A stretch of DNA of 42,299 bases from Microgenomates group bacterium (GTDB lineage Bacteria; Patescibacteriota; Microgenomatia; UBA12405). Under the pieces are notes generated by a model. It saw only the letters and a program-made list of their open reading frames with translations. It had not been told where the DNA came from and did not search any database. The stretch lies in the NCBI GenBank assembly GCA_049303675.1, contig JBAQNJ010000001.1:956001-998299 (forward strand), read 5' to 3'. Of the stretch, positions 1,493-25,355 are shown in pieces; positions within the stretch are counted from its first letter, which is position 1, and each line of letters opens with the position of its first letter. A program made the position numbers and the translations under genes.

Positions 1493-3133
1493 TTACTTTT
1501 TCTCGGTATACCTCGGCACTAGTGTATTTGGTTCATTAAACCATTCTTTCAATATATCCCCCACAATTGGTGCGGCCACGTCCGACCCTTCTCCCCCTCG
1601 CTCTACCATCACTGTAATTGAAATTTCTGGATTATCCGCTGGTGCAAATGCTGTTAGCCATGCATGTGTATCCTTACTCCCATCACCCACTTCTGCCGTC
1701 CCTGTCTTGCAGGCCAATTTTGTCTTGAAATTAAATAATGGCCACGCCGTCCCCCCACTATGGCAGGCCTCATACATCCCCTCTTTGACTACTTCAATAT
1801 TGGCCAATTTAGCTCCAATACTTTGACAATTCGGTTTACTATTTTTCAAGATACTCATACTACATTTGACCCCATTATTGGCAATAATATTGGTACTCTG
1901 ATTTACTTGCAGTGGCGTGACTCCCAAAAACCCTTGTCCAATCGACAAATGGTATGTATCCCCCAAATACCACCGCTCCCCTTTATTCTCCTGTTTCCAC
2001 TTGTCACTCGGGTTTATCCCCGCCTGTTCACCCGCCAGTTCTACCCCCGTTTTGTCTCCATAACCAAACTTATCAGACCAATTATGGATATTGTCGACAC
2101 CGAGGCGCTCTCCTAACTTGTAAAAATAAATATCATTACTTCGTCGCAGTGCGCCCGTTACATTTACCATTCCATCTGTCACCCCTCCCTTGGTCCATGC
2201 CCAATTACTATAACTATAATCACCCACTTTAATAACTCCTGTATCTTCAATAGTAGTATTTTTATCAACCACCCCAGTCTCCATCCCCGCCGTGGCCATC
2301 ACCAATTTATAAACACTTCCTGGATGATACCTTGTCCCAATCGCTCTATTTAATAGTGGCAAATTGGCAGTATCCTCCAAATATGATTTAATCGCTTTGT
2401 TATCCTGTAAAAAGGAAAAATTGTTGGCATCAATTGACGGCGATGATACCATCACTAGAATTTTACCTGTTTTTGGTTCACTAATTATCACCACCGCCTT
2501 TCTCCCCCCCAACATTTGATAAATTTTCTCCTGCCAATAAGCATCGATACTTAGTTCAATCTTTTTTCCCCCCACCGGCACCTCGCGTCCTAATTCTCTA
2601 ACATATTTTCCCTTAGCATCAATTTCTACCAATCTTCTCCCTGAAATTCCTCGTAGTTCACAGTCCAAATATTCTTCCACGCCTCCGCGACCAATAACAT
2701 CATCATTTCTCAACTTCAGTCCACTACAAGTACTCATTCCTTTTTCAGACTCATTAATTAGCCCCACATATCCTGTCAGCAGACCCATACTTTCCTTATA
2801 ATTATATTGTCTTTTTATATCCCAATATCTATCCTTACCTTCAAACTTGGCTCCTTCATAATCACCACTATTTAGATATTCCTTCTGACCATCCACCGTT
2901 TGCCAAAACTGATAAATACTTTTGGCCACCAGCCTCCCTTTCCTATCCACTATCTCCCCCCGACTAGCCGGTAATATTGTCTCCACAATTTTGTTATCAA
3001 ACGCCAGTCCCCGATAAAAACTTCCTCGAATAACCGACACCCTCACAATTGCCACCCCCAAAATCCCAAAAGTAGCCACTAAGCCCCAATTCAACAGCCA
3101 ATATTGCCAATCATTATTTTCATCTCTAGTCAT
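1493..3133 (-). CDS. mrdA: Penicillin-binding protein 2 (class B transpeptidase)
   Basis: Has an N-terminal TM segment and the motifs SVYK (SxxK), SND (SxN) and KTGTA (KTG). It overlaps mreB by 1 nt. Confidence 0.9.
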   Translation of the reverse strand: MTRDENNDWQYWLLNWGLVATFGILGVAIVRVSVIRGSFYRGLAFDNKIVETILPASRGEIVDRKGRLVAKSIYQFWQTVDGQKEYLNSGDYEGAKFEGKDRYWDIKRQYNYKESMGLLTGYVGLINESEKGMSTCSGLKLRNDDVIGRGGVEEYLDCELRGISGRRLVEIDAKGKYVRELGREVPVGGKKIELSIDAYWQEKIYQMLGGRKAVVIISEPKTGKILVMVSSPSIDANNFSFLQDNKAIKSYLEDTANLPLLNRAIGTRYHPGSVYKLVMATAGMETGVVDKNTTIEDTGVIKVGDYSYSNWAWTKGGVTDGMVNVTGALRRSNDIYFYKLGERLGVDNIHNWSDKFGYGDKTGVELAGEQAGINPSDKWKQENKGERWYLGDTYHLSIGQGFLGVTPLQVNQSTNIIANNGVKCSMSILKNSKPNCQSIGAKLANIEVVKEGMYEACHSGGTAWPLFNFKTKLACKTGTAEVGDGSKDTHAWLTAFAPADNPEISITVMVERGGEGSDVAAPIVGDILKEWFNEPNTLVPRYTEKK

Positions 3134-4263
3134 TATCCAGAAATTTGTCGAATACTGCTAAATAATTCCCTGTCCTCCATCAATCTACCACAACCTTTGA
3201 TGACACATAATCCGGCATCATCAGCCAGCTGGGTAGCTATCTTGGTTTCTTTTTCGATCATCCGGTCCAAGCCTTTTATCCTCGCACCATTACCTACCAA
3301 TATTATGCCTCTTTTCAAGATGTCATCCATCAATTCTGGCGGTGTCTCATCCAACTCTTCTTTTATTAATTTAATTATTTTTTGAACTTCCAAAATTATC
3401 GACTCTCTAATTTCGTTTTCATTCACCTTAATTGATTTGGGTAAACCAGTTTCTAGACTTCTACCTCTCAAGACAATTTCTCTTGGCCCCTTACTGGTCT
3501 CATTGAGGTTGCCCAGTTCCACTTTGGACTTCTCGGCAGTTGTCTGGCCAATTAGCAAACTATACTTCATTCGAATATAGTTGATAATCGCTAGATCAAA
3601 ATCACCACTCGAAGTCTTTATTCCCTTCCCCACCACTACCCCTCCCATGCTAATTACCCCCACCTCAGTCTTGCCCCCACCCACATCGACAATCATCATT
3701 CCTGAGTTTTTTCGCGTTGGCAGACCAATTCCCACAGCCGCCAGCACCAACCCTTCCACCAACACCACTTCTGCCGCTCCCGAAGCTATAAACACCGATT
3801 TTACCGCTCTTTTTTGAACATCTGTTGTCGTCCCTGGTACCGACACAATAATTCTTGGTTTGAATATTTTTGGGTAAGTACTGGGTATTTCATAAATTAA
3901 TTTCAGATAATAAGACACCAGCAACTCCAAAGCCTCTAGGTCCGAGATAATACCATTTTTAATTGGCCCAATCACTTCTATTTGTCGCGGCTCTCGGTTC
4001 AGCATTTCCTTAGCCTTGTATCCATAGGCCACAATTTTATTACCTCCCCATTTTGGCGCCGACAATCCCGTCCACCTTTTTTTACGCAAGCGGGCCACCA
4101 TCGTTGGTTCATCCACCACAATTCCCCGATCGTTTAAAAGGAGCAAAGTATTACTTGTTCCTAGGTCTACTCCTATATCCCAATAAAAGTTAGCCACCAT
4201 CCCTCTACCTTTTTGAATTATCGTTTGCCAGTATCCCACAGTAAAATTATATAATAAACTCAA
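3133..4263 (-). CDS. mreB: Rod-shape actin homologue MreB (start more likely the ATG at 4200, MVANFYWDIGVDLGTSNT)
   Basis: Contains the actin/Hsp70-fold phosphate motifs DLGTSNT and VDVGGGKTEV. It is adjacent to PBP2. Confidence 0.9.
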   Translation of the reverse strand: MSLLYNFTVGYWQTIIQKGRGMVANFYWDIGVDLGTSNTLLLLNDRGIVVDEPTMVARLRKKRWTGLSAPKWGGNKIVAYGYKAKEMLNREPRQIEVIGPIKNGIISDLEALELLVSYYLKLIYEIPSTYPKIFKPRIIVSVPGTTTDVQKRAVKSVFIASGAAEVVLVEGLVLAAVGIGLPTRKNSGMMIVDVGGGKTEVGVISMGGVVVGKGIKTSSGDFDLAIINYIRMKYSLLIGQTTAEKSKVELGNLNETSKGPREIVLRGRSLETGLPKSIKVNENEIRESIILEVQKIIKLIKEELDETPPELMDDILKRGIILVGNGARIKGLDRMIEKETKIATQLADDAGLCVIKGCGRLMEDRELFSSIRQISG

Positions 4264-12208: not shown

Positions 12209-12270
12209 TTGGTAGAGCAGTCCGAAAGCTTTCGGACAGGTCGTCAGTCCGAGTCTGACTTCAGGCTCCA
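12209..12270 (+). pseudogene. Truncated tRNA copy (D-loop to CCA) with the anticodon arm replaced by an 18-nt palindrome
   Basis: Reads ttggtagagca + gtccgaaagctttcggac + aggtc + T arm gtcag-tccgagt-ctgac + ttcaggc-t-cca. It begins 1 nt after the GIY-YIG stop. Its 3' acceptor strand can pair with the 5' acceptor strand at 11858-11864. Confidence 0.6.
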
Positions 12271-17890: not shown

Positions 17891-17963
17891 AGCCCAGAAA
17901 GGAACTTGAATCCTTGACCTTCCCCTTACCAAGGGGATGCTCTACCAACTGAGCTATCTGGGC
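17891..17963 (-). tRNA. tRNA-Thr (anticodon GGU)
   Basis: Manual cloverleaf: gcccaga/tctgggc, D arm gctc-agttggta-gagc, anticodon arm tcccc-ttggtaa-gggga, aggtc, T arm aagga-ttcaagt-tcctt. Confidence 0.9.
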
Positions 17964-17994
17964 GAATTGTTAATATTGGTACTGAATTATACTT

Positions 17995-18043
17995 GACCTG
18001 TCCGAAAGCTTTCGGACTGCTCTACCAACTGAGCTATCTGGGC
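17995..18043 (-). pseudogene. Truncated tRNA copy (5' acceptor to variable loop) with the palindromic anticodon arm
   Basis: The first 26 nt are identical to tRNA-Thr(GGU) (gcccagatagctcagttggtagagca). These are followed by gtccgaaagctttcggac and aggtc. There is no T arm. Confidence 0.6.
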
Positions 18044-18134
18044 GGTATCGATATTGTAACAAAAATTTTACTACTTACTCAGTCTAAGTAGCCTGTTTTT
18101 GTTATAATTCCTAAGTAAAGTCAAAATTAAATTT

Positions 18135-18156
18135 TATTTCGTAATTCGTAATTAAT
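18135..18156. repeat. Heptad array, TAATTCG family
   Basis: Reads tatttcg taattcg taattaa, just upstream of tRNA-Ser. Confidence 0.7.
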
Positions 18157-19690
18157 AATTTTTAATTGATTTTGGAGAGGTGCTCCGAATGGTAAGGAAC
18201 TTGTTTTGAAAACAAGCGCCAGCAATGGCATGCAGGTTCGACTCCTGTCCTCTCCGCCAACCAGAAAATGGGGGCGAATTTAGCAAAATTCGCCAGCCAA
18301 TATTGCCCTGAAATCCGAAATTTTTATCTTTTAAAACGAAGTTCGAGCCGATATTTTTTAAGAAACTTCTAAATTCATAAGGATTGTTTTTCTTTATTAA
18401 TATTTTGGCAAGGCTTGCGGATAAAATCATTTCTCTCATTTGTTCGAGCCAATTATTTCCTTTTGATTCAAAATCTTTTAAATCCTGCTCGATACCAGTT
18501 TGTTGATTGATAAATAAATTTTTCTTGGTGAGGTATTGTTGATTATCAATCAAATTATCGAGTCGGAAATTTAGCAGGTCATCAAGTTTTCGGTTAATTT
18601 CTGATTTTTGAGTTACCAGATTTTGAATCAATGGTTGGGATTGGATATTTGCTTGATTGGTTTCTTGGTCTAACTCTACCAACATCTTTTTTACCCAACT
18701 TTTCGGCAAAGAAACTTTTTGAATCTTGGTTTTGATTTGGTCTATCAATTCCTCCTCTCGTAAATATTTTTCGGGACAATTACTTTTCTTTTTAGTACAG
18801 CGATAATAGTTATGTCCTTTTTGGGTTTCGGCGGTTATCAGGCAACCACACCCGCCACATCTCATTAGTCCCGAAAAAATAAACTCGTGTTTTCGTTGCC
18901 GATGTTTTTTGCCTCGGTTATTCATCACCTCTGCCACCAAATCAAAAAGTTTCTTAGAAATAATTGGCTCATGAACTCCTTTATACAATTCACCATTAAA
19001 TCGAATCAGTCCGTAATAAATTGGGTTTTGTAACATAAATTGGACACGGGATTCTGATAAAGTTTTATCTTGATAACTTTTAAGGTTTGACTTAGCGAAA
19101 AATCCGGCGATACCTTTGAGGGTGCAATCGCCAGTCGAGTACATTTCAAATGCCTTTTTGATTAGTTTTGCTTTGGGAATATCAATATCAATTCCTTTGG
19201 TTTTACGATTATTGACATAACCAATCGGAGCAAAAGACGGCCATAAACCATTCCTTAGTTTTTGTCTGATTCCTCGCCGGATATTTTCGCTTAAATTATC
19301 AACATAATATTTACTCTGACCAAAGGCAATATTTAACATAAACTTGCCTTGTGGGGTTGAGTCAAACCAAAAAGTAGGAAACTTTAAATCAAGAATTTTT
19401 CCCGTGTCCAATAAATAAATGATTTTCCCGCCATCAATTGAGTTTCTGGCCAATCTATCAGGGTGCCAAGCCAAAATGCCCTGTGCTTCGCCTTTTTCCA
19501 TTCTCTCAATCATTTGATTAAAAACAATCCTTCCGGGTTTCTTGGCAGTTTTTGCCTCGGTGAACGAGGCAACGATTTCAATTTTTTGAATTGTGGCAAA
19601 TTCTTTTAGCTCAGCAATCTGATCACCAATACTTTTTATTTGTCTTTCTTCACTGTCGGTTGATTTTCTAGCGTATAAAAAGTATTTCAT
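18152..19690 (-). CDS. Large serine recombinase (integrase); the last ~60 codons read through the att arm and antisense tRNA-Ser
   Basis: Has the N-terminal resolvase catalytic motif YARKSTDSEERQ, a recombinase domain, and the zinc ribbon CGGCGCLITAETQKGHNYYRCTKKKSNCPEKY. Confidence 0.9.
   Translation of the reverse strand: MKYFLYARKSTDSEERQIKSIGDQIAELKEFATIQKIEIVASFTEAKTAKKPGRIVFNQMIERMEKGEAQGILAWHPDRLARNSIDGGKIIYLLDTGKILDLKFPTFWFDSTPQGKFMLNIAFGQSKYYVDNLSENIRRGIRQKLRNGLWPSFAPIGYVNNRKTKGIDIDIPKAKLIKKAFEMYSTGDCTLKGIAGFFAKSNLKSYQDKTLSESRVQFMLQNPIYYGLIRFNGELYKGVHEPIISKKLFDLVAEVMNNRGKKHRQRKHEFIFSGLMRCGGCGCLITAETQKGHNYYRCTKKKSNCPEKYLREEELIDQIKTKIQKVSLPKSWVKKMLVELDQETNQANIQSQPLIQNLVTQKSEINRKLDDLLNFRLDNLIDNQQYLTKKNLFINQQTGIEQDLKDFESKGNNWLEQMREMILSASLAKILIKKNNPYEFRSFLKNIGSNFVLKDKNFGFQGNIGWRILLNSPPFSGWRRGQESNLHAIAGACFQNKFLTIRSTSPKSIKNY
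18174..18259 (+). tRNA. tRNA-Ser (anticodon UGA), long variable arm, encoded CCA
   Basis: Acceptor ggagagg/cctctcc, anticodon arm cttgt-tttgaaa-acaag, variable arm cgccagcaatggcat, T arm gcagg-ttcgact-cctgt, then g-cca. The D stem is imperfect. Confidence 0.85.
18254..18337 (+). repeat. attL-side arm: 84-bp perfect inverted-repeat partner of 19715-19798
   Basis: I compared the reverse complement base by base and found it identical over 84 nt. It contains the internal hairpin ggcgaatt/aattcgcc. Confidence 0.95.
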
Positions 19691-19696
19691 TTTTTT

Positions 19697-19948
19697 AAGC
19701 CCGCATTTGGCCCAGTTTTAAAAGATAAAAATTTCGGATTTCAGGGCAATATTGGCTGGCGAATTTTGCTAAATTCGCCCCCATTTTCTGGTTGGCGGTG
19801 TGCATTCGAAAATATTCGAACAGATTTTCAAAATTTATAATGACGGGCGGAACTCGCCCCCCTCCGATTTCCGCCCGATGGAAAGTGAGGATTTCAATAA
19901 AACTGCCAAAATATCGGCTCGAACTTCTTTTGGGCCAAATGCGGGCTT
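19697..19948. repeat. 18-bp inverted repeat (aagcccgcatttggccca / tgggccaaatgcgggctt) enclosing the internal att-like site
   Basis: The arms lie at 19697-19714 and 19931-19948. The right arm is followed by a T-run, and the left arm is preceded by a T-run on the plus strand (an A-run on the minus strand). Confidence 0.9.
19715..19899 (-). repeat. Internal inverted attP-like composite site (arm shared with attL + core + arm shared with attR)
   Basis: 19715-19798 is the reverse complement of 18254-18337. 19792-19899 is the reverse complement of 24851-24958. The two share the core ttggcgg (19792-19798). Confidence 0.9.
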
Positions 19949-20033
19949 TTGAAAAAATGATAAAAAATACTGACATAATGCTAACTATAGTATGTAGAAC
20001 TAAAGTTAGCAAGTGGTTATAATAATCCGCATA

Positions 20034-20255
20034 ATGAAAAAACAAATATTAGTAAAATTCGGACAAAGTGTTAGACAAGAAAGAGAGAAACAGGGGTTGT
20101 CACAGGAGGAGTTGGCTAACAAGGCCAAAGTACACCGAACTTACATTGGAATGATTGAAAGGGCTGAGAAAAATATTACTCTGGCTAATATCGAAAAAAT
20201 CGCTAATGCTTTAAAAATGAAGATTAGTAACCTACTAAAACAAGATGAAGATTAG
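20034..20255 (+). CDS. XRE-family helix-turn-helix transcriptional regulator
   Basis: GLSQEELANKAKVHRTYIGMIERAEKNITLANIEKIANAL is a typical Cro/C1 HTH. The ORF track starts at 20013, but ATG 20034 (MKKQILV) is more likely, with TATAAT at 20018-20023. Confidence 0.85.
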   Translation: MKKQILVKFGQSVRQEREKQGLSQEELANKAKVHRTYIGMIERAEKNITLANIEKIANALKMKISNLLKQDED

Positions 20256-21690
20256 CCAATTATTTAAGTTAGACAAAACCCAGTTTGAACTTGATTTTGT
20301 TGATGTGGATATAGAACATGATAATTGGTTGTTTCTCGACCCTTTTTTTATTTCGACACGAAATGATCCCTGGTCGGTAGATGCAACGAGAGTTATTAAA
20401 TCTTTTTTTCAGTACATCATAGATTTGACAAAATCCGGAAATGTTAACCAAGCTAAGGGCTACTTTACTCATTTGAACGAACCAAACGAAACCTGCTTGG
20501 GAATGTCAAAAGGTAACCCCAGGGGGAATGGTGTTGGAAATGATAACGCTGAAAAGATTTTTGATAGCTTGTTGACTAGTAAAGCTATGGAGACCGGATT
20601 AGTAGAAAACCTAGAAGATTCTGCAATTTTTATTGACGGAATTGCTAGAGATAAGGTATCTGACGTCACAACAAATATAATCAGACGTAATTTAATCGAA
20701 TATACAAAAAATCAATGTGATCTATGGGGAATACCAATTACAAATAATTGTCCGTCTGGGTTCTATTGGAACCAAAATTCTAAAAAGTGGGATCAGTCCT
20801 ATACAGAAAGGTTGGTAATTAACAATAAATTGTTTCTACTTGTACCCAAGAATTCGGTTACATTTTATAAGGATTATATCGACCAAAAATACTATCAACA
20901 TTATGTTCTAAATTTTCTTCAAGATGAACACATGAAGAACAATAGTCCTTTAGTTCAGCATAGGAAGCTAAAAGACGGAACAATCCATAGTTTTGTTACC
21001 AAGAAAGACATTAAAGAAAAAGATTCACCTTTTTCCAAGGACCTCTTAAGAGAATTTACACGTAAACATCCTGATATATTCGCGAAATTTAGAAATGAAA
21101 AAAAGGGATCAGTCAAACCTCTAAGCAATGAGCAGCTAACTAACATAAGTCTTAATGAAGTCGTCGAATATTTAGTTAAGTGTCTAGATGAGATACGACC
21201 CGGAGGTGACGAAGCCTCCAAATATCATAGATTAATGATTGGAATCTTAGAACTAATTTTTTATCCACATCTAACAAACCCAATAAAGGAAAGAGAGATA
21301 AACGAAGGAAGAAAACGAATCGATATTGCAATGGATAATGCCGCAACAAACGGTTTTTTTCATCAACTACATGATATTCACAAGATATCTTCCAGGTTTG
21401 TTTATATCGAATGTAAAAACTATTCGGATGATCCAGAAAATCCTGAATTAGATCAGCTATCGGGAAGATTTTCCGTAAACACTAGCAATTTTGGCATATT
21501 AGCTTGCAGGGTGGTAAATAATAAAAAACTTATGACTCAAAGGTGTATTGATCTCTATAAACAAAAAAAGGAGTTGATCATCGTATTTGACGATGGGGAA
21601 ATAAAAGAAATGTTGAACCACTTACTAACAGATTCATCCTATATAGATTCCTGTCTTTGCAACAAAAGAAGGGAAACAGAACTTGCATGA
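20245..21690 (+). CDS. 481-aa protein with a C-terminal PD-(D/E)xK-like nuclease motif; N-terminal region unknown
   Basis: GRKRIDIAMD ... FVYIECKNY fits the D...(D/E)xK pattern of the restriction-endonuclease fold. It overlaps the XRE gene by 11 nt. No methyltransferase is nearby. Confidence 0.55.
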   Translation: MKISQLFKLDKTQFELDFVDVDIEHDNWLFLDPFFISTRNDPWSVDATRVIKSFFQYIIDLTKSGNVNQAKGYFTHLNEPNETCLGMSKGNPRGNGVGNDNAEKIFDSLLTSKAMETGLVENLEDSAIFIDGIARDKVSDVTTNIIRRNLIEYTKNQCDLWGIPITNNCPSGFYWNQNSKKWDQSYTERLVINNKLFLLVPKNSVTFYKDYIDQKYYQHYVLNFLQDEHMKNNSPLVQHRKLKDGTIHSFVTKKDIKEKDSPFSKDLLREFTRKHPDIFAKFRNEKKGSVKPLSNEQLTNISLNEVVEYLVKCLDEIRPGGDEASKYHRLMIGILELIFYPHLTNPIKEREINEGRKRIDIAMDNAATNGFFHQLHDIHKISSRFVYIECKNYSDDPENPELDQLSGRFSVNTSNFGILACRVVNNKKLMTQRCIDLYKQKKELIIVFDDGEIKEMLNHLLTDSSYIDSCLCNKRRETELA

Positions 21691-21755
21691 TTTTTATTGC
21701 AGCCTTTCATAGTCCACGGTGATTAAATATTATATTCGTGACATAATACGTAAGA

Positions 21756-22760
21756 ATGAAATATTCAAATAGACTTGGCGAAATCAGTAACGAGCAACTA
21801 CAAAAGGCTTTAGATAAATTAAAACTTGGGAAATTTGTAAAAGCAGAACCGATAGGATTTGGTAATTTTGGCCAAAATCTTTTTCTAACGAGTGATAAGG
21901 GTGAGTTTGTATTGAGAGGTAAGCCCCATTATCCGTGGCAATTCCCAAGTGAACAATTTATGGCCAATCTGTTTCATGAAAACACTAAAGTTCCGGTACC
22001 TTGGCCTTATTTAGTTGATGGGGATATGGGTATTTTTGGTTGGAGTTATTGCATTATGCCAAGACTTCAAGGATTGCAACTTAAAGATAAGGCTGTTTAC
22101 GATCAATTGCCTTTGAAAGATAAGCTTGAAGTAGCCCAAGCTTTGGGGGAAAACTTAGCCGAAATGCAAAAACTTACCTGGGAATTCAGTGGTAAGTATG
22201 ATTTGGAATCAAGAACAATAAAACCTTTAGAAAAACCATGGGATCAATGGGTTATTGATTTCATTGACGACTTGGTATCTAAAAGCGCGACTTACAGCGA
22301 CAAAACTCCCAAGAAGGATGTGGAATGGATAAATCAGTTAATTGAGACTGGGAAGGAAGCACTACAAGCCCCATTTACGCCAACCTTTGTGATGCATGAT
22401 TATCAAATTAGTAATATGGTGGTTGATAAGGTAAATGGTAAGTGGCAAGTAACTGGACTTTTTGACTTAATGGAAAATTATTTTGGCGATGGTGAATCAG
22501 ACCTAAGTCGGGTATATGTGGCCTACGCTGAGGAAAATGAAACTTTAGCCTATGCATTTTTAAATTCTTATCTATCTAAAATGAAAGTAAGACAAGGATT
22601 TGAGAAGCGATGGCCAATTTACATGATTCTTGATCGAATCGTGGTGTGGGAATGGGCTCAAAGAAACGGGAAATGTTGGTGGAAACAGGAGTACACATTT
22701 AGAGAATGGGTAGAAGGCAATACTTTACTTGACGTTAAGAGATTAATAATCAAGAAATAA
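21756..22760 (+). CDS. Phosphotransferase (APH/CotS-like kinase fold) family protein
   Basis: FVMHDYQISNMVV (catalytic loop-like) and GLFDLMENYFGDGESDLSR (Mg-binding D plus the GDxxxDL motif) resemble aminoglycoside/choline kinase-type enzymes. Confidence 0.7.
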   Translation: MKYSNRLGEISNEQLQKALDKLKLGKFVKAEPIGFGNFGQNLFLTSDKGEFVLRGKPHYPWQFPSEQFMANLFHENTKVPVPWPYLVDGDMGIFGWSYCIMPRLQGLQLKDKAVYDQLPLKDKLEVAQALGENLAEMQKLTWEFSGKYDLESRTIKPLEKPWDQWVIDFIDDLVSKSATYSDKTPKKDVEWINQLIETGKEALQAPFTPTFVMHDYQISNMVVDKVNGKWQVTGLFDLMENYFGDGESDLSRVYVAYAEENETLAYAFLNSYLSKMKVRQGFEKRWPIYMILDRIVVWEWAQRNGKCWWKQEYTFREWVEGNTLLDVKRLIIKK

Positions 22761-22764
22761 ATAT

Positions 22765-23712
22765 ATGGATCAACAAATATTTATGAATAATATTAGCCCA
22801 AAACAAATAATTACTGATTTTTCCAATAAAAGAAAAAACCCTGTGTTGTTTTTAGATATTAAGGAAGTCGGTAAAAATGTTGCATTATTAGTATCCGAAC
22901 TGTTAAAAGGTAAATTTTTTGATTCTCTCGATGTAGTCTTGCAAACCCCAGGTGGAAATATAGATGCTGCTTTTTTAATTGCAAAATTAATTAGAAAAAG
23001 CACTAAAAACCTCACAATTTTTGTGCCTTTGTATGCTAAAAGCGCAGGAACATTGATCTGTCTGTCGGCTGACCATCTTTTGTTAACTGATATATCAGAA
23101 CTAGGCCCGCTAGACACACAAATATTTGAACAACAAGATGGCGGGCAATCGCAATATGTATCCGCTCTAAACGGGTTTAAAGCCTTGGAACAGGTGCAAC
23201 TGCATTCAATTGAAACTCTCGATATTACAACGAAGCTCTTACTTTCAAAAAGTTCAATGAAGATTTGTGAGGCTGTAGAACTGGCTTCCGATTTCTGCGG
23301 AAAAACTAGTGGAAAACTGTATCAGAAACTTAATCCGGCAAAAATTGGTGAGTATGCAAGGGCGTTAGAAATTGGTGAATCGTATGGAGTCACGATACTT
23401 AATAAGTATTGTAAATGGGATAGACAAAAAGCAGAAATGACTGTAAAAATTCTGGTAAAGCAGTATCCATCACACGAGTATGTAATTGATCTTGAGGAAT
23501 TAACTGACTTGGGAATACCCGCAGAACTTATTTGTGACGAACTTGTTGATTCCGTAAAAATATTAAGGAATTTGATGTTACAATCTGCCGAGACACAAGT
23601 AGAGCTAATTGAGCCAACAACGAATCAAAATACTACTCTACCAAATACTACCCCACCTGTCTCTATTAGTGGTAATATTAATATAGATGATAATGAAAGA
23701 TTGGCGAGATAA
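22765..23712 (+). CDS. ClpP/SDH-fold (S49-like) serine protease family protein
   Basis: LQTPGGNIDAAFLIAKLIR...VPLYAKSAGTLICLSADHLLL...GPLDTQ resembles the SDH family Clp-fold serine proteinases (from memory). Confidence 0.65.
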   Translation: MDQQIFMNNISPKQIITDFSNKRKNPVLFLDIKEVGKNVALLVSELLKGKFFDSLDVVLQTPGGNIDAAFLIAKLIRKSTKNLTIFVPLYAKSAGTLICLSADHLLLTDISELGPLDTQIFEQQDGGQSQYVSALNGFKALEQVQLHSIETLDITTKLLLSKSSMKICEAVELASDFCGKTSGKLYQKLNPAKIGEYARALEIGESYGVTILNKYCKWDRQKAEMTVKILVKQYPSHEYVIDLEELTDLGIPAELICDELVDSVKILRNLMLQSAETQVELIEPTTNQNTTLPNTTPPVSISGNINIDDNERLAR

Positions 23713-23934
23713 AAACTTAACAAAAGTAAGAAACAGTAAGACAGATTCGGTGAGAGATGTTTTTAAGAGAGAAATACTAAATACCAGAATAGTTATTTCG
23801 GGAATTCTCAGAGAGCAAGACGATAAATATCGTCAAGAAAATATTGTGAATGGTAGTATTAAGTCGCCACTAAGTTGTATTTGAATTTGTCATTATAAAA
23901 TTAGGAACAAAGTTTAATAGGGTATAATTTATCT

Positions 23935-24183
23935 ATGACTTCCAAAAAAATAGCAACAATTTTATTAGTCGTTGGTATAGTTGGGGCTTTGAATAACTCA
24001 ACAGCCTTATCAAATGGAGGAATCGGGGCTTTATCTTTATTTATCGGCTCAATTTTTGGTGCAGTATTGGGTTCAGATATAGGTCGATTAATTACAATGT
24101 TAGTTGATATTATTTGTAGAGCCTCACTTATTTTCTTTATTTTAGCCGCCATTTACTATTACAAATCGAAAAAAGAAATCTAG
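23935..24183 (+). CDS. Small membrane protein (2-3 TM segments)
   Basis: An 82-aa hydrophobic ORF. I prefer it over the antisense ORF 23901-24152 because it is co-oriented with the rest of the island. Confidence 0.45.
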   Translation: MTSKKIATILLVVGIVGALNNSTALSNGGIGALSLFIGSIFGAVLGSDIGRLITMLVDIICRASLIFFILAAIYYYKSKKEI

Positions 24184-24236
24184 TTAATACTTCAATTTTT
24201 GAAAACGAATCGTAATAATAGAGGTATAATCGCATT

Positions 24237-24779
24237 GTGAATGCTAATTTAAACACAAAGGTTAAACCCCTATTTAATTGCTTAAAAGGCTATTATGAAA
24301 CAGCACCTGAATCAGGATACTGTAGACATCCACCAATTTGGGAAAACTACAATAAGACAATTGATGAACTAAATAATATAACTTCCGTCAATTACGACAG
24401 ATTTAAAATAACTAATATAAGAGATGATGCAGGTGATCAAGTTGTAGATGTAAATGAATACAGACAAAAATTATTAGGTTTGGTCAAATATCTCGAGGGT
24501 GAATATGATTTTTTTGAGGAAACAAAAAGCAGCTCGGGTGTAATCTTTAATAATAATCAGACTCAAAACTTACATTTAACCATTGTTTTAGAGTTTCAAA
24601 CTTTGGTCGATAAAAAATTATATGGCTCAAAACTCGATGAACAAGAAAAGGGTTATTTGGAGAAAATTAAAGAGCTATTGCCTGGAATAAAATCAATAAC
24701 AGAAATAGTCAATTTAATTCTTTCCTTGGGTAAGACAATGGGATTGACCTTAGACCAGATAACAAAATTGTTTACATAA
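24237..24779 (+). CDS. Hypothetical protein (GTG start)
   Basis: A 180-aa ORF, the last cargo gene. No motif recognised. Confidence 0.45.
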   Translation: MNANLNTKVKPLFNCLKGYYETAPESGYCRHPPIWENYNKTIDELNNITSVNYDRFKITNIRDDAGDQVVDVNEYRQKLLGLVKYLEGEYDFFEETKSSSGVIFNNNQTQNLHLTIVLEFQTLVDKKLYGSKLDEQEKGYLEKIKELLPGIKSITEIVNLILSLGKTMGLTLDQITKLFT

Positions 24780-24850
24780 AAGCACGAGAAGTAATATTTA
24801 TTTTTTGTTATTACATAAAAAAATTTGCCACAATTAAAAAATTGAAATCG

Positions 24851-24958
24851 TATTGAAATCCTCACTTTCCATCGGGCGGAAATCGGAGGGGGGCGAGTTC
24901 CGCCCGTCATTATAAATTTTGAAAATCTGTTCGAATATTTTCGAATGCACACCGCCAA
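24851..24958 (+). repeat. attR-side arm: 108-bp perfect inverted-repeat partner of 19792-19899
   Basis: I compared the reverse complement base by base and found it identical. It contains the hairpin gggcggaa/ttccgccc and the ttcgaa-atattt-tcgaa repeats. Confidence 0.95.
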
Positions 24959-24959
24959 A

Positions 24960-25355
24960 ATGAAAAACAATCTCCCCATCCGTGCAGTCAAAGCTGTTAT
25001 CCGAAACAAGAAAGGCGAGATATTATTGCTTCAGAGAAATCCCCAAATATCTCTCCAAGATAACTGGGACCTTCCTGGAGGGCTAGTCGAAACTGGAGAA
25101 AACTTCAAGAATGCTCTCATCCGCGAAGTAATGGAAGAGTTGAATCTAACAATCAACATCACCAAACAAGCAGGCAAGTGGCATTTTATCCGATTCAAAG
25201 ACAAGCAATTAGTACATGTCCAAAACTACCACTGTACTGTTAACAGTGGCGATATTCAGCTCAGTGAAGAACATCACGACTATAAATGGGTAAACCCTTC
25301 TGACATTCGAAAGTATTTAGTAAAAGACGACAGCTTTTATACTGCTATAAACTAG
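24960..25355 (+). CDS. NUDIX hydrolase
   Basis: Contains the Nudix box GGLVETGENFKNALIREVMEELNL. The ORF track start at 24945 lies inside the att arm, so ATG 24960 (MKNNLPIRAV) is preferred. Confidence 0.85.
   Translation: MKNNLPIRAVKAVIRNKKGEILLLQRNPQISLQDNWDLPGGLVETGENFKNALIREVMEELNLTINITKQAGKWHFIRFKDKQLVHVQNYHCTVNSGDIQLSEEHHDYKWVNPSDIRKYLVKDDSFYTAIN

Follow-up and report, generated by a model that had tools for sequence, protein, structure and literature searches.

A large serine integrase with attP inside its own reading frame and a second, inverted attP kept inside the integrated island

Background

Serine integrases are prized as simple and unidirectional enzymes, and one problem still to be solved is how natural elements keep such an enzyme under control when no directionality factor is known. 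The locus studied here raises this question in a particular form. It lies in the window, i.e., the whole stretch of DNA analysed, which comprises 42,299 nt of a Microgenomates group bacterium (GenBank assembly GCA_049303675.1, contig JBAQNJ010000001.1, positions 956,001 to 998,299). In this DNA, a serine recombinase gene and the cargo beside it are each enclosed by perfect inverted repeats, and a complete attachment site stands, inverted, between them. What is a complete attP doing inside an integrated element? The original prediction, made from the letters of the DNA, described the layout as attL - serine integrase - inverted attP - cargo - attR and suggested that it would allow inversion of either segment or may record a double or rearranged integration, the lack of mismatches pointing to ongoing recombination or a very recent event. 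In this study, the locus and its relatives were analysed computationally.

Results and discussion

Repeats and attachment sites in the window

Base-for-base comparison showed that the region 18254-18337 is the exact reverse complement of 19715-19798 (84/84) and that 24851-24958 is the exact reverse complement of 19792-19899 (108/108). A shorter repeat of 18 nt (19697-19714/19931-19948) was also exact, with 88% identity when lengthened to 25 nt. The two long repeats had been described as perfect in the original prediction, which also listed the 18-bp repeat and the overlap of the long repeats at a core; this core was found to be the 7-bp sequence TTGGCGG (19792-19798). Copies of this core, reading CCGCCAA, occur at 18254-18260, where they form the 3′ end of a tRNA-Ser(UGA) gene, and at 24952-24958. 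In 42 kb of DNA, perfect inverted repeats of 84 and 108 nt cannot be due to chance.

The tRNA-Ser(UGA) gene (18174-18259, plus strand; detected by ARAGORN and the Rfam tRNA family) constitutes the left half of attB, designated B. Its discriminator and CCA end (GCCA) fall within the crossover core. In the Rfam search, two tRNAs were the sole matches. The attL site (18254-18337, plus strand) consists of the core (18254-18260) followed by the first copy of the P′ arm, the exact inverted repeat of 19715-19798. The coding strand of the P′ arm is designated Q, and the minus strand here encodes integrase residues 452-479, VLKDKNFGFQGNIGWRILLNSPPFSGWR. The attR site (24851-24958, plus strand) consists of the second copy of the P arm, designated R, followed by the core (24952-24958), and is the exact inverted repeat of 19792-19899. 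A NUDIX gene (24945/24960-25355; Pfam), on the host B′ side, follows attR.

Between these two sites is a complete attP in inverted orientation (19715-19899, plus strand), identified by the exact repeats, in-frame reconstruction, codon-position conservation and motif offset described below. On the plus strand it comprises the Q arm (19715-19791), a Trp-Arg pair of codons (19793-19798), a tail encoding CAFENIRTDFQNL (19799-19837), a stop codon (19838-19840) and a hairpin (19845-19876), with the sequence ATTCGAAC (19814-19821), a mimic of the tRNA T-loop, inside the tail. In terms of half-sites, attL joins B (the tRNA) to P′, attR joins P to B′ (the flank), and the middle site joins P to P′ and is inverted.

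An intact tRNA-Ser gene and core copies in direct orientation at both borders are what is expected of a tRNA-targeting island. Base composition also shifts between 18 and 25 kb, with a GC content of 0.32-0.375 in the island compared with about 0.40 in the flanks, and a GC skew of about 0 to +0.25 compared with about -0.3. When the NUDIX and SufC proteins of the flanks were looked up by exact match in search of an empty site, the same genome was the sole result, apart from one short Logan contig. The boundaries of the island are probably those given above, as suggested by the logic of the three sites and by relatives that occupy other tRNA genes. What occupies 18254-24958 is an integrated island, one of a very large family that relies on large serine recombinases.

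An independent Logan assembly of run SRR28062879 contained a 5011-bp contig that matches 19870-24880 of the window exactly. It consists of the cargo with precisely 30 nt (k-1) of either 108-nt arm attached, so that the reads contain both distal junctions of these arms.

The integrase and its exchanged C-terminal tail

The conserved body of the large serine recombinase is 451 aa long and is encoded on the minus strand (18338-19690; Pfam Resolvase, Recombinase and Zn_ribbon_recom), with an ATG start codon at 19688-19690. The resolvase domain (PF00239) matched residues 4-148 with E = 3.9e-20, and the Y-x-R-K-S motif was present; its residues R8, K9 and S10 did not vary among 51 relatives. The recombinase and zinc-ribbon domains typical of large serine integrases were matched by PF07508 (E = 6.8e-14) and PF13408 (E = 1.6e-10). 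In the AlphaFold model, long helices follow the zinc ribbon (residues 330-378, 384-411 and 414-435). The nearest solved structure was distant, with 4KIS, the C-terminal domain of A118 integrase, giving a weak match (E = 2.5e-7). The source record does not annotate the integrase gene.

As it stands in the window, the open frame runs on beyond the body through the P′ arm and the antisense strand of the tRNA gene to 18152, giving 512 aa that end in a junk tail (RGQESNLH...). Exact look-up of this 512-aa product returned no record. In all relatives the frame reads through the P′ arm, where ...GSNF-ILKDKKFQF..KIGW... is conserved up to the core. Beyond the core, the frame of integrated copies enters the antisense tRNA (RGRDSNPR...) and continues for 3 to more than 100 junk codons.

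A different end appeared when Q was joined to R by reconstruction, as in the attP context. In 85 distinct elements, the frame then read W-R-C-x-[FLY]-x-x-[IV]-R-T-x-F and stopped. The consensus in detail was W-R-C-x-[FLY]-[EK]-x-[IV]-R-T-[DE]-F, followed by the stop codon and the hairpin. Among 70 distinct sequences, third codon positions of the tail were far more variable than first and second positions (entropies of 0, 0 and 1.92 for the Thr codon). This concentration of variation at third positions indicates that the tail is translated and selected as protein. In the AlphaFold model, the tail forms a terminal helix (residues 479-492) of moderate confidence (pLDDT about 60), preceded by a confident beta-hairpin. 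For the window, the native end of the attP-context integrase would be ...PPFSGWRCAFENIRTDFQNL and the stop codon; the attP-context protein ends ...WRCAFENIRTDFQNL, and the attL-context form ends in the junk tail.

These data bring out the main point, which the original prediction overlooked: the frame of the integrase gene extends across the att core. The P′ arm encodes the last beta-hairpin and linker, the crossover falls in an invariant Trp codon (the TGG being the CCA of the tRNA), and the P arm encodes the conserved C-terminal helix, stop codon and hairpin. With attP inside the reading frame, integration swaps the conserved tail for antisense-tRNA junk. Because only the attP context gives the conserved tail, the internal inverted attP amounts to an inverted spare of the true 3′ end of the integrase gene. 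Once a complete attP lies inverted between the integrase and the divergent helix-turn-helix gene described below, two nested pairs of inverted repeats necessarily result.

Geometry of attP and attB

In the P arm, the motif (T/C)CGAAC begins 21 nt past the invariant TGG (32 of 34 exact TCGAA matches), and in the tRNA the T-loop motif TTCGAAC begins 16 nt past the same TGG (52 of 54). The outer motif is therefore 5 bp farther from the centre in attP than in the tRNA. According to Rutherford and Van Duyne, the position of the outer, zinc-domain motif reportedly differs by about 5 bp between attP and attB of serine integrases, and the labels attP and attB are justified by the match between this geometry and the 5-bp offset. 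Judged by its sequence, the P arm is in effect an outward-shifted mimic of the tRNA T-arm. The CGAAC within the coding sequence of the tail doubles as a DNA motif.

Sequence comparison narrowed the core to the shared GCCA/TGGC and placed the centre of symmetry on the TGG codon. A palindromic central dinucleotide with loss of polarity was considered and rejected, as all types of site were canonical and the centre of symmetry lies on TGG. A transposon with terminal inverted repeats was also rejected, since inversion is all that a serine recombinase can bring about between inverted ends. The point of insertion of these elements is the GCCA end of a tRNA gene, in most cases one for tRNA-Ser.

Cargo, regulator and short copies of the integrase gene

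A small gene for an XRE/C-protein-type helix-turn-helix protein (20013-20255, plus strand; Pfam HTH_3, PADLOC control protein) lies divergent from the integrase. It was the only conserved gene of the cargo segment and adjoined the internal site, divergently, at 80 loci. Its product is a candidate recombination directionality factor only. The variable cargo (20245-24779 overall, plus strand) encodes a DUF8370/PDC-M36A protein (20245-21690), an APH-family kinase (21756-22760) and an SDH/ClpP-like protease (22765-23712), followed by small ORFs (23935-24183 and 24237-24779). The cargo of relatives ranged from 0.7 to 9 kb and, where annotated, consisted mostly of restriction-modification or other defence genes. 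The family is likely a major route of defence-gene traffic in uncultured small-genome bacteria.

The cargo is flanked on either side by short copies of integrase sequence, every one of them in the opposite orientation to the real gene. Those beside the internal site (inverted repeats I6/I7), which read in integrase sense on the plus strand, are AAAACTGCCAA (19897-19907), a copy of codons ~46-49; u′ (19908-19927), a copy of codons 445-451; and, after TTT, v′ (19931-19955), a copy of the 5′ leader and ATG region. The partner of v′ is v (19690-19714), the left arm of the short repeat enclosing the internal site, directly upstream of the integrase ATG. At the far end, w (24817-24851, plus strand), a copy of codons 29-40, adjoins the outer P arm and forms inverted repeats I3/I5 with 19572-19606. 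Such copies recurred in relatives with 55-67% identical integrases and were 96-100% identical to each element's own gene; the 53% subfamily lacks them. These copies may serve in pairing or be remnants of the way in which the family arose.

The v/v′ repeat co-varied between subfamilies. In the predicted RNA fold (z = -5.7), v pairs with 19931-19955 and buries the integrase start codon. A promoter scan of the internal site gave nothing above shuffled expectation. A small ORF on the internal site was rejected as a candidate, the tail frame being without a start codon.

Conservation across the family

Searches with the 451-aa body gave more than 566 relatives from GTDB species genomes and, from JGI metagenomes, more than 580, with identities of 53-94%, and 7643 related protein clusters (90% identity) were found at E <= 1e-50. 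For such searches the full-length query was more useful, as short C-terminal queries returned only proteins of similar length, mostly fragments. Hosts were mostly Patescibacteria and also included Nitrospira, Gammaproteobacteria, Thermodesulfovibrio, Dehalococcoidales, Kiritimatiellia and Bacteroidota; one isolate, Schleiferia thermophila DSM 21410 (locus L008), carried the element at about 208-215 kb of NZ_QPJS01000004.1. No close relatives were found in plasmid and phage collections (best matches 28-33% identical), indicating that the family is not phage- or plasmid-borne, and IMG/VR gave a single match with 47% identity.

Architecture was counted by self-comparison of about 170 fetched loci, representing 131 distinct full-length integrase genes. 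An inverted pair brackets the integrase at 86 of the 93 loci with enough flank (median length 87 nt, median identity about 99.2%, 49% perfect). A second, adjacent inverted pair, upstream of the integrase start and round the cargo, was present at 51 of 63 (median 113 nt), and the median overlap of the two pairs was 6 bp. A tRNA gene on the opposite strand abuts the 3′ arm of the integrase at 77 of the 98 scorable loci, including 58 for Ser (any anticodon), 12 for Gln, 4 for Trp and others. Tandem arrays of two elements with hybrid Q1-R2 junctions were common. Some loci had decayed arms (77-94% identity), and some had non-matching arms (L020 and L133) or arms that came from another subfamily. 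The P arm of one relative (L004) was identical to that of the window (100%), with an integrase gene differing by 8% and a different cargo. The contigs of many relatives break at the arms.

With the same architecture in 86 of the 93 scorable relatives, whose integrases are 53-94% identical, the suggestion of a very recent event is not supported. A double or rearranged integration peculiar to this genome is likewise contradicted, as the architecture recurs in independent assemblies, and the possibility of a chimeric contig is removed both by these relatives and by the Logan contig with its two distal junctions.

Orientation and evidence of inversion

At all 86 loci with the inverted pair, the start of the integrase adjoins the internal site. 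The helix-turn-helix gene was upstream and divergent 80 times and downstream and co-directional 3 times; of these 3, one was unrelated and the others (L124 and L168) were cargo flips in tandem arrays, with arms longer than the assembler's k. Among the first 163 loci, no integrase had a co-directional tRNA gene just upstream, and none was flipped with an intact internal site. A flipped cassette whose internal site is intact was seen once (L147) among about 130 distinct integrase genes. The order in L147, integrase-u′-Q-R-(integrase-sequence copies)-u′-v′-helix-turn-helix(+), is that of the predicted flipped isomer. This locus is a 1.9-kb SPAdes contig of 2.6x coverage, in which the 87-nt arm may exceed k and an error of path is possible.

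A second case was provided by L178-L182, a lineage represented by seven contigs that come from five or more samples. Here, tRNA-Ser(GCU)(+) is followed by the P′ arm, v′ and integrase(+). The 3′ end of the integrase, u′, is fused directly to v′ and leads into the co-directional helix-turn-helix gene and the cargo, and the far end carries w, now in direct orientation to the integrase, and the P arm. The u′ copies are direct repeats only in the flipped state. From its order of parts, this arrangement reads unambiguously as a flipped cassette after deletion between the two u′ copies, and its assembly is unambiguous because no inverted repeat remains. L178-L182, together with L147, show that inversion between attL and the internal attP has occurred in nature, though it is rare in snapshots. 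The idea of ongoing inversion is weakly supported: a past flip of the integrase segment is recorded in L178-L182, but the orientation is essentially fixed, with 80 regulators in the standard position versus 3.

A proposed switch and its alternatives

The arrangement may be an inversion switch that is thrown only rarely and then brings back the full-length integrase; we put this forward tentatively as the preferred reading. The observed orientation would be the quiet, stable state: in it, the integrase is tail-less, convergent with the tRNA gene and preceded by the R hairpin, and its start lies in the predicted v/v′ stem. If the cassette were, on rare occasions, inverted between attL and the internal attP, the gene would regain its native tail and terminator and come to lie downstream of the tRNA promoter, and v and v′ would be parted. 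At the sequence level, the junction of tRNA and P′ would continue into TGGGCCAAATGCGGGCTTAAAAAAATG if flipped, and it continues into GAAGTTCGAGCC in the standard state. The flipped state would then supply active integrase for excision. Inversion could be carried out by homologous recombination (RecA) over the 80-130-bp arms or by the integrase itself; the latter could make the flip because attL keeps the tRNA half-site and acts as an attB-like partner of attP in tandem arrays.

Identity between the arms would be maintained by gene conversion. Their near-perfect identity needs only occasional conversion, and homogenisation is not continuous, since some arms are 77-94% identical or come from another subfamily. 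The products of attP x attL are attL and attP again, so the active enzyme could also flip the cassette back to the disabled state, which would explain the dominance of one orientation. Taken further, the switch could reset itself, integration disabling the integrase, rare inversion restoring it under tRNA read-through, and the enzyme then excising the island or re-disabling itself. This fuller version is doubtful. If true, it would be nature's own counterpart, in a single protein, of the recombinase flip-flop memory devices of synthetic biology. The quiet state cannot be fully off, because a circle with the same upstream region must still express the integrase. The tail-less integrase may itself be the excision-competent form, which would make a switch unnecessary, and the integrase-derived copies u and w are not accounted for by the switch model.

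Several other explanations were weighed against this switch. The internal attP could be a regulatory element and not a recombination substrate, i.e., an integrase-binding operator for autoregulation, comparable to res of Tn3, with a terminator or insulator, the repeats being a side effect. Its position between the divergent integrase and helix-turn-helix genes at 80 loci, the terminator-like hairpins on both strands, the enclosing v/v′ repeat, which co-varies and can sequester the integrase start, and the nearly fixed orientation all fit this role. However, about 50 bp would suffice for it, so that a complete copy of tail, stop codon and hairpin, 190-450 bp long and about 99-100% identical, would be superfluous; nor would the constant inversion of the site be needed, and the fossil in L178-L182 shows recombination at the site. 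We consider the operator explanation unlikely. Somewhat less probable is a circle with two attP sites in which the internal one is also functional, for isomerising or amplifying the circle (compare the inverted repeats of the yeast 2-micron plasmid), for integration via either site, or for exchanging integrase and cargo modules between elements. By geometry, excision through attL x attR must indeed yield a circle with two inverted identical attP sites, and this explanation is also favoured by mosaic elements (the window compared with L004), by the non-matching arms of L020 and L133, by the flipped cargo in the two tandem arrays L124 and L168, and by L177, in which the integrase lies between two complete inverted copies of attP. 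Equal use of two sites would, however, leave about half of single insertions with both segments reversed, and none of the 77 tRNA-abutting loci was of this kind. The minimal elements have no replication gene and nothing to amplify, no circular contig was found among the metagenome loci, in none of which terminal direct repeats were detected, and L124, L168 and L177 either stop within arms that exceed the assembler's k or run through them.

The internal copy might also be a functionless by-product of history, such as an old inverted duplication, homogenised by gene conversion. Inverted repeats cause no deletion and could be tolerated, the copies u, v, w and that of codons 46-49 resemble relics of a rearranged second integrase, and the arms in some loci have decayed to 77-94% identity. 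This explanation seems less probable still: 86/93 relatives, with proteins as little as 53% identical, have retained the copy in full, with no change of place or orientation, and the streamlined genomes of Patescibacteria would shed 200 bp of useless repeat. Almost no credence is due to an assembly artefact or to a single recent event of double or rearranged integration in this genome. Inverted repeats longer than k can mislead assemblers, as the breaks of many relatives' contigs at the arms recall, but both distal junctions were recovered in an independent assembly of reads and the identical layout occurs in dozens of independent assemblies from different studies and phyla and in one isolate genome.

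Relation to known systems

By every testable criterion, the enzyme is a large serine integrase on a tRNA-targeting island. It has the resolvase, recombinase and zinc-ribbon domains and long helical insertion of the phiC31, Bxb1, A118/LI and SPbeta SprA enzymes and of CcrAB of SCCmec; its sites have the short core of large serine integrases and an attP zinc-domain motif 5 bp farther out than that of attB. The elements form tandem arrays at the same target, as SCC elements do. Unlike in known large serine integrases, attP is inside the integrase frame and the conserved tail is exchanged on integration, and a second complete, inverted attP is kept inside the integrated element.

In archaeal tyrosine integrases of the SSV1 type (fuselloviruses), the integrase gene contains attP and is partitioned when the element integrates at its target, a tRNA gene. 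There, the gene of a tyrosine-family enzyme is split into N- and C-terminal parts and no inverted spare exists, whereas here a serine enzyme loses a short tail. Only serine-recombinase Pfam families matched the integrase of the window, and the likeness is functional. Broussard and colleagues reportedly found in 2013 that the attP of the mycobacteriophages BPs and Brujita lies inside a reading frame and that integration alters the C-terminus of the protein and its activity or stability. In that integration-dependent immunity, by comparison with the present family, it is the repressor that is split, the integrase is a tyrosine enzyme and there is no internal inverted attP.

Hin, Gin, Cin and Pin are serine recombinases that act on an invertible segment with inverted sites, and Salmonella hin lies inside the H segment. 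These enzymes have about 190 aa with a C-terminal helix-turn-helix, a Fis-bound enhancer and 26-bp sites, and both orientations are appreciable. They do not integrate islands, whereas the present enzyme is a 490-aa integrase (a 451-aa body plus tail, with recombinase and zinc-ribbon domains) and one orientation is dominant, the other being represented in the loci surveyed by L147 and the one fossil lineage, L178-L182. In Tn3 and gamma-delta, the recombination site res lies in the divergent control region of tnpA and tnpR and doubles as an operator, and in IS10 a leader stem hides the start codon of the recombinase in read-through transcripts (fold-back inhibition). Both are analogies of regulatory role only, and neither has an inverted duplicate of the end of the recombinase gene. 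The element belongs to none of these, i.e., SSV1-type integration, mycobacteriophage immunity, the Hin switch or Tn3 res. What is new is the attP inside the integrase reading frame together with the obligatory internal inverted attP.

The original prediction knew of no described serine-integrase element with this arrangement. In agreement, no description of an attP in a serine-integrase frame or of an internal inverted attP was found in the literature searched, in which PMC9580842 proved not relevant. The family is apparently undescribed.

To the question of control, the family offers a testable answer in the layout of the DNA, as the gene of the enzyme is edited by its own reaction and the missing end is spared in inverted form. 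The T-loop and CCA end of its target are nearly universal, making these integrases candidate broad-host-range integration tools, including for candidate-phyla bacteria that lack genetics. For those annotating such genomes, short-read assemblies break predictably at the repeats, and gene calling often misses the integrase with its junk tail.

Integrase-derived copies at the cargo ends

Both ends of the cargo were found to carry short copies of integrase sequence (window 19897-19955 and 24817-24851). They correspond to codons ~46-49, codons 445-451, the 5′ leader with the ATG, and codons 29-40 of the integrase gene, and every copy lies in the orientation opposite to that of the integrase gene itself. 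Such copies were also detected in fetched loci of the integrase family (L008, 9700-9726; L007, 8412-8446; and L168, 66-124). The copies were 96-100% identical to the integrase of their own element, although the integrases of the relatives are only 55-67% identical to that of the window. The short copies co-evolve with the resident integrase gene.

Tandem arrays and an integrase fusion in related elements

Tandem arrays in which two family members meet at a hybrid Q1|R2 site (the P′ arm of one element next to the P arm of another) were observed in L004, L007, L012, L036, L098, L131, L156, L170, and L171. The members of an array often belong to different subfamilies, and through the Q1|R2 site the upstream integrase gains a tail that is of the conserved type but of foreign origin.

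In the fossil flipped lineage (L178-L182), in which the integrase cassette was inverted and then fixed by deletion, the deletion joins the integrase in frame to a helix-turn-helix regulator. The resulting integrase-XRE fusion ORF encodes 559 aa (L178, 3719-5398; protein P0150) and is also present in L179-L182, with 7 contigs carrying it. The attR core of this lineage is degenerate (CACACCG|TTTTT).

The cargo of another relative, L005, contains a gene (1626-3215) in which a LexA-like DNA-binding domain and an S24 peptidase are fused to a C5 cytosine methyltransferase, an unusual domain combination.

Annotation and assembly of the elements

At the integrase region, the gene calls of the source record include no integrase gene and only a 61-aa ORF (window 18152-19690; L001, 7590-9451); evidently, the annotation overlooks the junk-tailed integrase or takes it as defective. 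Dozens of short-read contigs (among L015-L080) begin within the internal site, 100–350 bp upstream of the integrase start. The inverted repeats systematically break metagenome-assembled genomes at these elements.

Host DNA surrounding the island

Throughout the window (1-42299), the host DNA showed a very strong, uniform, negative GC skew on the window strand (−0.2 to −0.47), irrespective of gene orientation. The island at 18–25 kb is distinct from it: its GC content is lower, and its skew is approximately 0 to +0.25.

At attR, the longest NUDIX ORF has its first ATG at 24945, within the P arm of the element (window 24945-24962), and the native start is likely the ATG at 24960, directly 3′ of the core; therefore, integration gives this host gene a different 5′ end and different upstream sequence.

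A 27-nt piece of tRNA-Thr(GGU) recurs 80 bp downstream of the gene (window 17938-17964 and 18018-18044), and this spot shares an exact 34-nt inverted repeat (window 17995-18028 and 12209-12242) with the sequence that follows tRNA-Thr(UGU). The spot may be a remnant att site of another tRNA-targeting element beside the tRNA-Ser hotspot.
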